Part shown: positions 1,904 to 8,799 of the stretch, piece after piece
How the letters are laid out: each line of letters starts with the position of its first letter
Numbering within the stretch: the stretch's first letter is position 1
DNA from: Escherichia coli
GTDB taxonomy: Bacteria; Pseudomonadota; Gammaproteobacteria; Enterobacterales; Enterobacteriaceae
Length of the DNA stretch: 64,000 nucleotides
Assembly (NCBI RefSeq): GCF_050320075.1
Contig: NZ_CP190022.1
Strand: one strand, 5' to 3'
Translations under genes and position numbers: made by a program
The notes under the pieces: model-generated
Databases searched by the model: none
Seen by the model: the letters and a program-made list of their open reading frames with translations, nothing else
What the model was told of the DNA's origin: nothing

Positions 1904-1967
1904 TTAACCCTTGCCGTCTGCCTGTGCAGGCGGCAGGATACGTTCAGACATCTCACCAGGAGGAACC

Positions 1968-2906
1968 GTGAGTAAGAAGAAAACCACCACGACGCCCACG
2001 CCGCATGATGCCGCGTTCCGGTCGTTCCTGGCGAACCCCGACGTCGCCAGAGATTTTCTGGAACTGCATCTTCCGGCGGAGTACCGGCAGTTGTGCGACC
2101 TGTCCACGCTGAAGCTGGAACCCGCCACCTTTGTTGAGCCGGACCTGCATCAGTACGCCAGCGATATCCTCTGGAGTGTGAAAACCACCGGGGGTGAAGA
2201 CGGCTATATTTATACGCTCATCGAGCACCAGAGCACCGAAAATCTGTACATGCCTTTCCGCATGTTACGTTACAGTGTGGCGGCGATGCAGAGACATCTG
2301 GAGCAGCACAAAACATTGCCACTGGTGATTCCGGTGCTGTTCTATCATGGTGAGCGCAGCCCGTACCCGTACAGCATGAACTGGCTGGACTGTTTTGAGG
2401 ATCCGGCGCTTGCGGCTAAAATATACACAAAGCCGTTTCCGCTGGTTGATATCACTGTCGTTGATGACAATGAAATCATGAACCATCGCCGGATGGCCGC
2501 ACTGACGCTGCTGATGAAGCATATCCGCCATCGTGACATGATGGAGCTGCTGGACAAACTCCCGCAGGTCATGGTGGAAATTTCAGACGAGCAGGTGCGT
2601 GTTCTGATTCATTACATCGTTAACGCAGGGGACTCTGTATCACCGGAATTTATGCGGGCGCTGGCTGAGCGTCTGCCGCAGCATGAGGATAAACTGATGA
2701 CTATTGCCGAACGTCTTGAGCAGCAAGGAATACAGAAAGGAATACAGCAGGGAATACAGCAGGGAATACAGCAGGGAATACAGAAAGGCCGCATGGAGGA
2801 GAAGCAGGATATTGCGCGTCAGCTTCAGAAAACGGGAATGCCATCTGCACAAATCTGTCAGATCACCGGACTTTCCGAAGCTGAACTGAAGAACATCACT
2901 CACTGA
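1968..2906 (+). CDS. Rpn-family recombination-promoting nuclease (YhgA-like, PD-(D/E)XK) with C-terminal GIQQ repeats
   Basis: GTG at 1968 after aggagg RBS; N-terminal PHDAAF(R)SFL...DFLE...HLP and central IEHQS motifs typical of the YhgA/Rpn family; C-terminal QGIQKGIQQGIQQGIQQGIQKG repeat. Confidence 0.7.
   Translation: MSKKKTTTTPTPHDAAFRSFLANPDVARDFLELHLPAEYRQLCDLSTLKLEPATFVEPDLHQYASDILWSVKTTGGEDGYIYTLIEHQSTENLYMPFRMLRYSVAAMQRHLEQHKTLPLVIPVLFYHGERSPYPYSMNWLDCFEDPALAAKIYTKPFPLVDITVVDDNEIMNHRRMAALTLLMKHIRHRDMMELLDKLPQVMVEISDEQVRVLIHYIVNAGDSVSPEFMRALAERLPQHEDKLMTIAERLEQQGIQKGIQQGIQQGIQQGIQKGRMEEKQDIARQLQKTGMPSAQICQITGLSEAELKNITH
2727..2786 (+). repeat. Five tandem 12-bp units (ggaatacagcag / ggaatacagaaa) inside the Rpn gene
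   Basis: Directly visible tandem repeat; encodes (GIQQ/GIQK)x5. Confidence 0.85.
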
Positions 2907-3631: not shown

Positions 3632-3990
3632 TCTTCAGTCGCGCCGGATGCGGCGCTCCCTGCACACCTGACGGTGTGTAAGGCCACTGCGCCTGATGGC
3701 GCAGCTGTCTCTGCCTGTCTGCCGCCGCACTGCGGCCCGTTTTCCGCAGACGGACTTTCCGGGGGTACATACACGACCACATCCCGTTTCAGTCGTCCAG
3801 GGGAGAGATGTACCAGCCACAAAACTTTTTGCCGCAGGCGTCAAAAACTTTTGCGTCTGCCCCCGGACAACTGCCCCGTGACGTGGTGAGCGTCCCCCGT
3901 CGGAAAGGTCCACTGCGGGGAAATCCCCGAAGACCCGGACGGCAGAAGGAGCTTCGCTCCTCCGGGAAATGACCTGGCTGACCCGGCAGT
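3632..3990. promoter_or_regulatory. Frpo/ssi-like leading-region repeat, copy 2
   Basis: Imperfect direct repeat of 735-1085, ending just before the start at 4011. Confidence 0.5.
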
Positions 3991-4947: not shown

Positions 4948-5283
4948 TCAATTGTTGTTCATATCGATGCCATCTTTTCTGCCTGAATCTGTCTTTTTAG
5001 GTGCTGTTTTAGAGGAAGAACGGCGGGATGGTTTTTTCGATTCTGCTTCCCGAATAATGTCACGAAGTGCCTTCTCTCCTACTTCATACCCTGCATTTTT
5101 GAGCGTGTCACGAACATCTGCCAGTGTATAACCCTTTGTCCTTACCAGGACAATGATGTCATCACGAATGGCATCAAGAAAATCACGCAATGTTTTCCGT
5201 TGAGCGGTGAGGTCCGGCAATTCCGATAAGGCAGATTTTGCCAGCTGGATGTCATCATCTGAGTAAAATTTTTTAGAAGCCAT
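4948..5283 (-). CDS. Hypothetical protein (111 aa) with Lys/Ser/Pro-rich C-terminal tail, divergent from nikA
   Basis: ATG at 5283 with ggagag RBS; tail SKKPSRRSSSKTAPKKTDSGRK suggests nucleic-acid binding. Confidence 0.45.
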   Translation of the reverse strand: MASKKFYSDDDIQLAKSALSELPDLTAQRKTLRDFLDAIRDDIIVLVRTKGYTLADVRDTLKNAGYEVGEKALRDIIREAESKKPSRRSSSKTAPKKTDSGRKDGIDMNNN

Positions 5284-5329
5284 TAGCACTTTCTCTCCGT
5301 TTCATGTTGAAGTCTGATTTTATCATCAA

Positions 5330-5515
5330 AAACTGACTCCTGGCAGGGCTGCGCCCTGCCTCTGCCGTCTGCATAAGACTATGATGCACAAAAATAACAG
5401 GCTATAATGGCCTGAAAAACGGGACAGGATGTGGGAATGTCGGACCGCGCACGCGCACTCAGACATTCCCCACCTGGTCAGGGCTTTGCCCCGACACCCC
5501 GGTAAGGAGCAGACC
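5330..5515. other. Origin of transfer (oriT) region, approximate
   Basis: Immediately upstream of nikA; inverted repeats ggcagggc-tgc-gccctgcc (5343-5361) and gggaatgtc...gacattccc (about 5433-5471); nick site not identified. Confidence 0.45.
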
Positions 5516-5848
5516 ATGAGTGAGAAGAAAACCCGAACGGGCAGTGAGAACAGGAAGAGAATTGTAAAATTCACGGCGAGATTCACGGAGGATGAGGCTG
5601 AAATCGTAAGAGAAAAAGCGGAGTCAAGTGGACAGACGGTTTCAACATTTATACGAAGCTCTTCACTGGATAAGGTGGTTAACTGCCGTACTGACGACCG
5701 TATGATTGATGAGATTATGCGTCTTGGCCGCCTTCAGAAGCATCTGTTTGTGGAGGGAAAACGCACTGGTGATAAGGAGTATGCAGAGGTTCTTGTTGCC
5801 ATTACTGAATATGTCAATGCTCTGCGAAGAGACTTAATGGGACGCTGA
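5516..5848 (+). CDS. nikA: NikA relaxosome accessory protein (ribbon-helix-helix)
   Basis: aaggag RBS; MSEKKTRTGSENRKRIVKFTARFTEDEAEIVREKAE matches my memory of R64 NikA; about 110 aa; directly followed by the relaxase. Confidence 0.85.
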   Translation: MSEKKTRTGSENRKRIVKFTARFTEDEAEIVREKAESSGQTVSTFIRSSSLDKVVNCRTDDRMIDEIMRLGRLQKHLFVEGKRTGDKEYAEVLVAITEYVNALRRDLMGR

Positions 5849-5859
5849 GATAACTGCTG

Positions 5860-8580
5860 ATGAATGCCATTATTCCGCACAAAAGACGTGACGGCAGGTC
5901 TTCCTTTGAAGACCTGATTGCGTACACGTCTGTGCGGGATGATGTGCAGGAAAATGAGCTCACAGAAGACAGCGAAATCAAGAGTGATGTCCCTCACCGC
6001 AACCGTTTCAGACGGCTTGTTGATTATGCAACACGCCTGCGTAACGAAAAATTTGTCTCCCTGATTGATGTGATGAAAGACGGCAGTCAGTGGGTAAATT
6101 TCTATGGCGTAACCTGTTTCCATAACTGCAATTCACTGGAAACAGCTGCTGAAGAGATGCAGTACAAGGCGGACAAAGCTGTTTTTTCCCGTAATGATAC
6201 AGACCCCGTTTTCCACTACATTCTTTCCTGGCCTGCGCATGAAAGCCCGCGTCCTGAGCAGCTTTTTGACTGTGTGCGTCACACACTGAAATCTCTTGAA
6301 CTCTCAAAACATCAGTACGTGGCTGCCGTTCATACGGACACGGATAATCTGCATGTGCATGTTGCCGTGAATCGTGTACATCCTGAAACTGGTTATATTA
6401 ACTGGCTTTCCTGGAGCCAGGAAAAACTCAGTCGTGCATGCCGTGAACTTGAACTTAAGCACGGATTTGCGCCGGATAATGGCTGCTTTGTGCATGCACC
6501 CGGCAACCGTATTGTGCGCAAAACAGCGCTGGTACGTGAGCGCCGTAATGCCTGGCGACGCGGGAAAAAGCAGACGTTCAGGGAATATATTGCGCAGATG
6601 TCGATTGCCGGGCTGCGTGAAGAGCCCGCACAGGACTGGTTATCTTTGCATAAACGGCTGGCCAGTGATGGTCTGTATATCACGATGCAGGAAGGGGAAC
6701 TGGTGGTGAAGGATGGCTGGGACAGAGCGCGGGAAGGTGTTGCACTCAGTTCGTTCGGACCGTCATGGACAGCTGAAAAACTGGGGCGGAAACTGGGGGA
6801 ATATCAGCCTGTACCGACAGATATTTTCAGTCAGGTGGGGACACCCGGTCGTTATGATCCGGAAGCCATAAACGTGGATATCCGGCCGGAAAAAGTGGCA
6901 GAAACGGAGAGTCTGAAACAGTACGCCTGTCGTCACTTTGCTGAACGCTTACCGGAAATGGCGCGAAATGGTGAACTGAAAAGTTGCCTGGCTGTACACC
7001 GTACTCTGGCAGAGGCGGGATTATGGATGGGGATTCAGCACGGGCATCTGGTACTGCATGATGGATTTGATAAACAACAGACACCAGTACGTGCAGACAG
7101 TGTGTGGCCGTTAATGACGCTGGATTATATGCAGGATCTGGATGGTGGATGGCACTCTGTACCGAAGGATATTTTTACTCAGGTTATACCCGAAGAACGA
7201 TTCCGGGGACACAGTATTGGCACTCAGGCTGTCAGCGATTACGAATGGTATCGCATGAGGATGGGCACTGGTCCACAGGGTGCCATAAAGCGTGAACTGT
7301 TTTCCGATAAGGAAAGTCTGTGGGGATACGCTCTTATTCAGTGCAGGAGCCAGATTGAAGAGATGATAGCTGGCGGGGATTTCAGCTGGCAGGCATGTCA
7401 TGAGATGTTTGCGCGTAAAGGGCTTATGCTGCAGAAACAGCATCATGGTCTCGTGATTGTGGATGCGTTTAATCATGAACTGACACCGGTGAAGGCCAGC
7501 AGTATCCACCCGGATTTGACGTTATCCCGGGCCGAGCCTCAGGCCGGGCCATTTGAAATTGCGGCTGCAGATATTTTCGAACGGGTGAAGCCTGAATGTC
7601 GCTACAATCCGGAACTTGCTGCCAGTGATGAAGTGGAGCCCGGCTTCCGGCGCGATCCTGAGCTGCGTCGTGAGCGCCGTGAAGCCCGTGCAGCTGCGCG
7701 GGAAGATTTGCGTGCGCGTTATCTTGCATGGAAGGAACACTGGCGTAAACCCGATTTACGTTACGGCGAACGGTTGCGGGAAATTCATGCTGCCTGCCGT
7801 CGTCGCAAGGCTCATATCCGCGTGCAGTTCCGGGATCCACAATTGCGTAAACTGCATTACCATATTGCAGAAGTGCAACGTATGCAGGCGCTGATCAGAC
7901 TGAAGGAAAATGTCAGGGAAGAGCGACTGGCGCTGATGGCGGAGGGTAAGTGGTATCCGTTGTCCTACCGGCAGTGGGTGGAACAACAGGCGGCGCAAGG
8001 CGACAGAGCTGCAGTGTCACAGCTCCGAGGCTGGGATTATCGCGATCGTCGCTCGCGTAATAAGGATAAAAGACGCACAACTAATGCTGATCGTTGTGTC
8101 GTTCTCTGCGAACCCGGAGGAACGCCACTTTTTAATAATGTTGCAAAACTTGAAGCTCGTCTTCAGAAAAATGGAAGTGTTCATTTCAGGGATACGCGGA
8201 CAGGAAAAAATGTCTGTACGGATTACGGAGATCGGGTTGTGTTCTACCATCACACGGACCGAAATGAACTGGCAGAGAAGCTTGATTTAATTGCGCCAGT
8301 TCTGTTCAGCCGCAACGGAAAGCTTGGTTTTGAGCCGGAAGGTTCATACCAGCAGTTTAATGATGTGTTTGCAGAAATGGTGGCCTGGCACAATGCAGCG
8401 GGAATAACCGGAAACGGACACTTCACCATTACTCGTCCGGACGTGGATTTGCACCGTCAACGCAGTGAGCAGTATTACCGGGAATATATCAGACAGCAGA
8501 CCCGTTTATCGGAGAGCCATGATGATAATTATACGTTACGGCAGGAGAAAACATGGGAGCCACCATCACCTGGAATGTAA
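5860..8580 (+). CDS. nikB: NikB relaxase (MOBP family)
   Basis: 906 aa, start MNAIIPHKRRDG; relaxase His motif region HTDTDNLHVHVAVNRV; size and position as in R64. Confidence 0.85.
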   Translation: MNAIIPHKRRDGRSSFEDLIAYTSVRDDVQENELTEDSEIKSDVPHRNRFRRLVDYATRLRNEKFVSLIDVMKDGSQWVNFYGVTCFHNCNSLETAAEEMQYKADKAVFSRNDTDPVFHYILSWPAHESPRPEQLFDCVRHTLKSLELSKHQYVAAVHTDTDNLHVHVAVNRVHPETGYINWLSWSQEKLSRACRELELKHGFAPDNGCFVHAPGNRIVRKTALVRERRNAWRRGKKQTFREYIAQMSIAGLREEPAQDWLSLHKRLASDGLYITMQEGELVVKDGWDRAREGVALSSFGPSWTAEKLGRKLGEYQPVPTDIFSQVGTPGRYDPEAINVDIRPEKVAETESLKQYACRHFAERLPEMARNGELKSCLAVHRTLAEAGLWMGIQHGHLVLHDGFDKQQTPVRADSVWPLMTLDYMQDLDGGWHSVPKDIFTQVIPEERFRGHSIGTQAVSDYEWYRMRMGTGPQGAIKRELFSDKESLWGYALIQCRSQIEEMIAGGDFSWQACHEMFARKGLMLQKQHHGLVIVDAFNHELTPVKASSIHPDLTLSRAEPQAGPFEIAAADIFERVKPECRYNPELAASDEVEPGFRRDPELRRERREARAAAREDLRARYLAWKEHWRKPDLRYGERLREIHAACRRRKAHIRVQFRDPQLRKLHYHIAEVQRMQALIRLKENVREERLALMAEGKWYPLSYRQWVEQQAAQGDRAAVSQLRGWDYRDRRSRNKDKRRTTNADRCVVLCEPGGTPLFNNVAKLEARLQKNGSVHFRDTRTGKNVCTDYGDRVVFYHHTDRNELAEKLDLIAPVLFSRNGKLGFEPEGSYQQFNDVFAEMVAWHNAAGITGNGHFTITRPDVDLHRQRSEQYYREYIRQQTRLSESHDDNYTLRQEKTWEPPSPGM

Positions 8581-8799
8581 GCCCGGATAAGTGATGGTGC
8601 AAAGATTCAGCCCAAAAACGGCAGGAACCTTCGTCAATAAGGGCGGGAGTAGTCACTGAATTGAGTTTATACCCGGTTAACTCTGAATTAAGGGCCGTGT
8701 CTGCGGCCCTTATCCAGTGCGCCGTAAACCCCGGACTTAGTGAACAGGGTTTTACAGTCTGATTGACAGATATGGTCACCAGAAAATATTTGTATTCCT

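Follow-up and report, generated by a model that had tools for sequence, protein, structure and literature searches.

The stretch of DNA analysed here, called the window below, comprises 64,000 nucleotides of contig NZ_CP190022.1 of Escherichia coli (assembly GCF_050320075.1), and our subject is the origin of transfer (oriT) found between two of its divergent genes. On the low-coordinate side lies a yggA-like gene on the minus strand (4948-5283, 111 amino acids), identified from the list of open reading frames and from annotated equivalents, whose product has a lysine-rich C-terminus. It stands outside the oriT and shares the intergenic region with it. On the other side, both on the plus strand, are nikA (5516-5848, 110 amino acids), coding for a ribbon-helix-helix (RHH) relaxosome accessory protein and preceded by the ribosome-binding site TAAGGAG at 5503-5509, and nikB (5860-8580), coding for a MOBP relaxase of 906 amino acids. 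The gap between the start codons of the yggA-like gene (ATG at 5283) and nikA (ATG at 5516) measures 232 bp, in agreement with the interval of around 230 bp in which an initial annotation had placed a candidate oriT.

The two proteins encoded downstream are those expected of a conjugation system, and their genes are intact. The product of 5516-5848 matches the Pfam family NikA-like (PF21983, 69 bits), the NCBIfam family MobA (NF041264, 107 bits for a cut-off of 80) and the structure 2BA3 of the PDB, which is the RHH domain of R64 NikA (residues 1-51, E = 3.6e-6). The protein encoded at 5860-8580 is recognised by NCBIfam NF041893 (TraI/MobA(P) relaxase, 408 bits), and also by PF03432 (Relaxase) and PF22863 (TraI middle domain).

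The intergenic region is rich in inverted repeats. The initial annotation had drawn attention to two of them, and both are perfect: an 8-bp repeat around a 3-nt loop, GGCAGGGC tgc GCCCTGCC, at 5342-5349 and 5353-5360, and a 9-bp repeat, GGGAATGTC and GACATTCCC, at 5433-5441 and 5462-5470, whose arms enclose the core ggaccgcgcacgcgcactca (5442-5461). They had been described as nested and are in fact side by side. The 9-bp repeat turned out to be the outer part of an imperfect 18-nt repeat (15/18 matches) with arms at 5433-5450 and 5453-5470, 2 nt apart, and a third repeat, absent from that annotation, lies further right (GTCAGGGC ttt GCCCCGAC, 5477-5484 and 5488-5495). We compared these structures with 2000 dinucleotide-preserving shuffles of the 232-bp interval. 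Perfect repeats of 9 bp or longer turned up in 26 shuffles, two or more repeats of 8 bp or longer in 27, and an 18-mer repeat matching at 15/18 positions or better in none. Both of the repeats noted at the outset exceed chance.

The 82 bp at 5420-5501, read on the minus strand, almost certainly serve as oriT to a conjugative resistance plasmid that belongs to the I-complex (IncB/O/K2/Z-type) and to the R64 family. This minimal module consists of the nick region (5420-5432), the 17/18-bp inverted repeat, with a nick-proximal arm (5433-5450) equivalent to the 'repeat A' of R64 and a nick-distal arm (5453-5470), and the second inverted repeat (5477-5495), the counterpart of the '8-bp repeat' of R64. 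The presence of an oriT in the interval, as initially proposed, is upheld by an alignment with the R64 oriT region (reference sequence NC_005014) along its whole length, by the near-identity with plasmid pO26-CRL125, in which 576 of 577 bases are the same over 5284-5860 (intergenic region and nikA), by the presence of NikA and NikB downstream, and by the occurrence of the core elsewhere as a mobile orphan oriT. Upstream of the nick region, R64 differs by two substitutions (A/G at the left edge, T/C at 5413) and by an indel of 1 bp within the repeat at 5342-5360. The only other differences concern the 17-bp repeat, the base in the loop of the 8-bp repeat and the ~14 bases that immediately precede nikA. 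A megablast search with 5290-5520 matched 2036 plasmid records, 1853 of them predicted to be conjugative, from Escherichia, Salmonella, Shigella and Klebsiella. The records that we inspected were typed MPF_I/MOBP. The best matches were IncK2/Z plasmids with the gene order yggA-like gene, 'MobA' (NikA-like), relaxase, trbC.

The limits of the module were given by nature and by experiment. We scanned metagenome contigs for a pattern made of the nick region, 34-50 nt, and the start of the 8-bp repeat, which returned at least 120 stretches; together with the previously fetched plasmid loci and the window, this gave 137 copies with enough flank. All counts of metagenome loci given here and below are among the matches listed. 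In 79 of the 137 copies there is no nikA downstream. The identity of these copies to the window is 99% at 5420 and at background level from 5419 leftwards; on the other side it is 89-100% through the stem bases 5488-5499, with a dip at the loop bases 5486-5487 only, and falls to background beyond ~5501. A complete Col(MG828) plasmid of 1538 bp has only the module in common with the window, the window-type 17-bp repeat included, and the window-type block is found on small plasmids more generally. For pESBL (IncI1), a transposon-sequencing study lists an oriT of 83 bp whose end is 15 nt away from nikA; a fraction of 0.72 of this feature came out as necessary for transfer, and YggA scored as neutral (PMC4288162). 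Transposed to the window, this feature corresponds to 5419-5501, and the module likewise ends 15 nt before the start codon of nikA. Since the copies without nikA and the pESBL feature give nearly the same limits, we set those of the module at 5420-5501. The orphan oriTs are hitch-hiker copies, whereas the copy in the window is a resident oriT beside its own nikAB.

On the minus strand, the nick region reads 5'-ACATCCTG|TCCCG-3' (in a longer stretch, 5'-CACATCCTGTCCCG-3'), and it contains at 5431-5424 the octamer CATCCTGT, which fits the MOBP consensus YATCCTGY. Within this consensus, (C/T)ATCCTG(C/T), RP4 TraI and its relatives cut after the G (PMC3772185). Positions 5420-5433 are the same as in R64, and the nick region is identical to that of R64 in every variant aligned. 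The motif ends 8 nt from the 17/18-bp repeat. In the oriT of R64, the nick also lies 8 nt from the repeat, and the exact bond cleaved was reportedly described by Furuya and Komano in 1991. Because this copy of the motif is identical to the R64 nick region and is 8 nt from the repeat, we place the putative nick between 5425 and 5424 of the minus strand (CATCCTG|T). Such a polarity fits the map, since the 3' side of the cut runs to the yggA-like gene and the leading region. In the matching plasmids the leading-region genes ardA, psiB and ssb are on the low-coordinate side, past yggA. The yggA gene of R64, which is ~97% identical to the one in the window at the DNA level, is the first gene of the leading region (PMC6112013).

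Within the 82-bp module, the two arms of the 17-bp repeat are the sole segment that has been replaced relative to R64, the loop base of the 8-bp repeat aside. Eight plasmid sequences provided five versions of the repeat, with seven base pairs changed on both arms. None of 500 shuffles reached the observed covariation between arms, and the signal was nearly all gone when the partner was slid by 1-3 columns. When metagenome loci were included, we found 40 distinct versions of the repeat and at least 13 different 11-mers in arm A, the nick-proximal arm, with a mean complementarity of 9.5/11 to their own partner arm versus 6.3/11 to arms of other types. In 63 loci bearing nikA, the type of arm A tracks the stretch of NikA that is aligned with the RHH beta-strand. 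Four variants of this stretch are common. The window-type segment (...NRKRIVKFTARF...) goes with an arm A of type ...TGTCGGA in 19 of 20 loci, the R64-type segment (...VRQKTVVRTLRF...) with [C/T]AATTGTAATA in all 23, ...KRQKNVLIAVRF... with TAATCGTATAA in 8/8 and ...RRQKTILRAVRF... with CAATTGTATAA in 5/5. The beta-strand region reads KRIVKFTARF in the window versus QKTVVRTLRF in R64, and more generally the N-terminal RHH half of NikA has diverged from R64, whereas the C-terminal half is nearly identical. RHH accessory proteins are known to read the major groove via their beta-sheet (PMC6514445). Given the compensatory changes in the arms and the tracking of the NikA variant, we read the 17-bp repeat as a specificity determinant. 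The combination of arm A GCAATTGTAATACCGTC with an R64-type beta-strand, which characterizes the R64 specificity class, was not found in the window, whose oriT is predicted to be in another class, of the pO26-CRL125/pECOED type. The replaced 17-bp repeat and the diverged NikA therefore lead us to expect a helper specificity different from that of R64.

Plasmid pSTEC719_2 has kept the R64 proximal arm and the R64 NikA while its distal arm is degenerate, which fits work on R64 in which NikA was reportedly found to bind the proximal arm only ('repeat A'). The core of the R64 oriT consists of the nick region and repeat A (PMC4743918). By analogy, the proximal arm at 5433-5450 would be the binding site of NikA.

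The second 8-bp repeat (5477-5495) is nearly identical to that of R64 and stands out in this respect from the surrounding DNA, whose identity to R64 is 50-80%. In the eight plasmid sequences, six of its eight stem pairs are invariant and a seventh is disrupted in one sequence only, while the loop varies; the pair 90/102 is non-standard in all eight. In the window, the single mismatch, between 5480 and 5492, is an A.C on the plus strand and a G.T wobble on the minus strand, the one transferred. The conservation of this G.T hints that the hairpin matters as a single strand. The minus strand of the module folds into two hairpins (-26.7 kcal/mol, z = -5.4), with eight pairs in the one formed by 5477-5495. 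This agrees with the termination role published for the repeats of R64, where both sets reportedly act in the termination of transfer (study cited in PMC6030822).

These elements suggest how the oriT would work. NikA would bind the nick-proximal arm (5433-5450) through its beta-sheet and position the relaxase NikB, which would cut the minus strand 8 nt away, at 5'-CATCCTG|T-3' (5425/5424), and stay on the 5' end. The minus strand would then be transferred 5' to 3' towards lower coordinates, with yggA and the leading region entering first and the two repeats and nikAB last. Upon arrival as a single strand, the repeats would fold into hairpins (5433-5470 and 5477-5495), which may assist NikB in recognising the terminus and in resealing the DNA. 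Which helper plasmids can act would be decided by the 17-bp repeat, through the match of its sequence with the beta-strand variant of NikA. The homology, the anatomy, the covariation, the protein families and the natural limits of the module come from our analysis; published work on R64 and RP4 is the basis for three points of the scheme, namely that NikA would bind the proximal arm, which bond would be cleaved, and how the repeats would act in termination.

The repeat at 5342-5360 has no place in this scheme. Of the two repeats highlighted by the initial annotation, the 9-bp one is inside the functional module and the 8-bp one is outside. One could argue that the latter is nevertheless a functional part of the oriT, for example a site for an accessory protein or a hairpin on the incoming strand. 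It is indeed conserved across I-complex plasmids, being mostly identical among nikA-bearing loci, with one variant (GGCAGTGC..GCACTGCC, compensatory on both arms) in three divergent loci, and no stronger hairpin forms within the 140 nt that lead the transferred strand. However, it is absent from 79/79 orphan oriTs, lies outside the 83-bp feature of pESBL, has suffered a 1-nt deletion in one arm in R64, and overlaps the -35 element of the only promoter-like site in the interval, which is directed at yggA. We thus regard a function within the oriT as unlikely. The promoter in question is a sigma-70 candidate on the minus strand (5317-5346), with a -35 CTGCCA (5346-5341), an 18-nt spacer and a TG-extended -10 TAAAAT (5322-5317); with 9/12 matches in a simple consensus scan, it is a weakly supported one. 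An IncM homologue of YggA, Orf35, represses nikA, nikB and traH by 23- to 80-fold (PMC6112013). Considering its absence from orphans, the overlap with the -35 and the repression by Orf35, the repeat at 5342-5360 is probably, though with low confidence, an operator at the divergent promoters of yggA and possibly also nikA, outside the oriT. The same scan of the interval revealed no sigma-70 promoter for nikA on the plus strand. A perfect TATAAT at 5403-5408 on this strand has no acceptable -35, and it is overlapped by a minus-strand stem-loop with a 5-bp stem, CAGGC cattata GCCTG, followed by a run of T (5398-5414). This element, which lies outside the minimal module, was the only terminator-like hit of the scan; it also folds, and it is not conserved in the orphan oriTs.

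A second alternative is that the oriT has decayed, its altered 17-bp repeat working with no NikA. The repeat is unlike that of R64, the only version dissected experimentally, at most positions, and has three inner mismatches. Against this, both arms have changed together and the 9 outer pairs are perfect. The same variant occurs, with an identity of at least 99%, in 157 plasmid records. It always sits beside the same intact variant of NikA and has been copied onto many orphan plasmids; in the window itself nikA and nikB are intact. Decay is therefore very improbable. Even less credible is the idea that the repeats are purely transcriptional, i.e., operators or attenuators of divergent yggA and nikAB promoters with the oriT located elsewhere: they do lie between divergently transcribed genes, the RHH of the NikA type is also a repressor fold (PMC6514445) and the IncM homologue of YggA represses nikA and nikB (PMC6112013), but the 82-bp block travels without flanking genes on small plasmids, which would be senseless for an operator, its nick region is base for base that of the R64 oriT and it is homologous to the pESBL feature needed for transfer, so that a regulatory role could come in addition to the role as oriT, not in its place. 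A few other identities were tried for the repeats and rejected. The terminator scan gave no hit at 5342-5360, 5433-5470 or 5477-5495, a search of Rfam for structured RNA gave two sub-threshold chance matches only (E = 0.5 and 0.7), and a replication or recombination site was likewise rejected.

Some observations weigh against the identification of the oriT, its nick site and its specificity. Our search of the literature found no nick mapping, NikA footprint or mobilisation assay for this variant of the repeat, so that the function ascribed to the window's oriT is predicted from its homology with R64 and pESBL. The motif YATCCTGY has 19 copies in the whole window on both strands, for 8.7 +/- 2.4 expected from shuffles, and therefore only context marks the copy at the nick. 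Finally, the association between repeat and NikA suffers one clear exception, a single metagenome locus among L010-L129 with a TAATCGTATAA-type repeat and a window-type NikA, which may be a recombinant.

Several contigs of the metagenome set carry more than one oriT of this family. We counted 15 contigs with 2-4 minimal oriTs (L018, L110, L125, L047, L082, L121, L122 and L090 included), many of them 2-5 kb long, devoid of nikA and with mixed types of the 17-bp repeat. In L018 (945-1330), a window-type GGAATGTCGGA copy and a TAATCGTATAA copy are divergent and 322 bp apart. These contigs look like small hitch-hiker plasmids that stack oriTs for several helper specificities, and some of them, such as L112, may be multimers produced by assembly.

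The divergence from related plasmids is itself a mosaic. Relative to R64, identity is 97-100% left of 5434 and 50-80% right of it, the switch, from ~98% to ~65%, taking place exactly at the boundary between the nick region and the repeat. Relative to pKP16-19 (K2/Z), the backbone is mostly 92-100% identical on both sides of a diverged block from 5434 to ~6400, which encompasses the 17-bp repeat, the whole of nikA and nikB up to about codon 180. It resembles a specificity cassette that is exchangeable or evolves fast. The catalytic domain of the relaxase diverges while the nick region stays invariant. A tentative reading, which we hold to be possible but less likely than not, is that the 17-bp repeat, the RHH domain of NikA and the first ~180 codons of nikB make up a fast-diversifying 'specificity cassette' in a near-identical I-complex backbone, to which small hitch-hikers answer by stacking several types of orphan oriT. 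If true, conjugative plasmids and their parasites would be engaged in an arms race, or would be partitioning helpers, through the diversification of oriT and NikA. The pieces are already known singly (NikA differs, repeats differ, orphan oriTs exist), and we did not find the systematic picture of such a cassette in the literature searched.

Other features of the surroundings deserve mention. In the leading region, two direct repeats (734-977 and 3638-3886) are 96-97% identical and ~2.9 kb apart; they are probably single-strand promoter repeats of the Frpo/ssi type, as in IncI leading regions (PMC3817090). A gene for an Rpn-family nuclease (1911-2906, plus strand) has a run of QGIQ(Q/K)G pentapeptide repeats near the C-terminus, and its open reading frame (TTG start) has 331 amino acids versus ~308 annotated in the matching plasmids, which could reflect an earlier start codon or a different number of repeats. 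On the other side, the gap between nikB and trbC (8581-8799) is ~220 bp in the window versus ~1.3 kb in pMRY16-002_3 and pO26-CRL125, as judged from coordinates only; in these two plasmids the stretch codes for a protein named 'TolA C-terminal domain' and for a small hypothetical one.

The I-complex plasmids (IncI1, B/O, K, Z) rank among the main vehicles of resistance genes, those for extended-spectrum beta-lactamases included, in E. coli, Salmonella and Shigella, and knowing the exact oriT and its specificity class indicates which small plasmids a helper can mobilise. The site itself brings nothing new to the literature, as it is already annotated in an identical plasmid. The gains are modest: a position for the nick, limits for the 82-bp module drawn from natural orphan copies, and a covariation between repeat and NikA that backs the 17-bp repeat as the determinant of specificity.

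The closest known systems are indeed the oriTs of pO26-CRL125 and pO111-CRL115 (IncZ) and of p3521 (IncB), from which that of the window shows no substantive difference. Venturini et al. 2013 (PMC3817090) located the oriT of pO26-CRL125 by comparison with R64 alone. They called its 85-bp sequence identical to that of the IncB plasmid p3521 and gave the two repeat sets, those of 8 bp being the same as in R64 and the 17-bp ones unlike R64, 'as may be expected', NikA being different. R64 and ColIb-P9 (IncI1) share with the window the gene order yggA - oriT - nikA - nikB. In R64, the intergenic region aligns over its whole length with differences at five places, and the nick region and the stems of the 8-bp repeat are the same, as is the distance from the nick to the 17-bp repeat. 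In contrast, the 17-bp repeat is GCAATTGTAATACCGTC in R64 and GGGAATGTCGGACCGCG in the window, the NikA proteins are 60% identical and differ in the RHH beta-strand, and the nikB genes are ~70% identical at the DNA level. Orphan R64-like oriTs and small plasmids with nikA only are also related (pEC156; NTP16/pCERC7/pU302S). Small plasmids of the Col type bear a ~90-bp block with homology to the oriT of R64, and I-complex helpers mobilise them. RP4 (IncP, TraJ/TraI) works in a like manner. Its relaxase is also of the MOBP type, its nick has the core YATCCTGY, and an accessory protein binds an inverted repeat situated, on the cleaved strand, just 5' of the nick (PMC3772185), but there is no sequence similarity past the nick core, the accessory family differs, and the type IV secretion system is MPF_T instead of MPF_I. 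The oriT of the window is thus not a member of the RP4 family; it has the nick region, the 17-bp repeat, the 8-bp repeat and the position upstream of nikA-nikB that characterize the family of R64.
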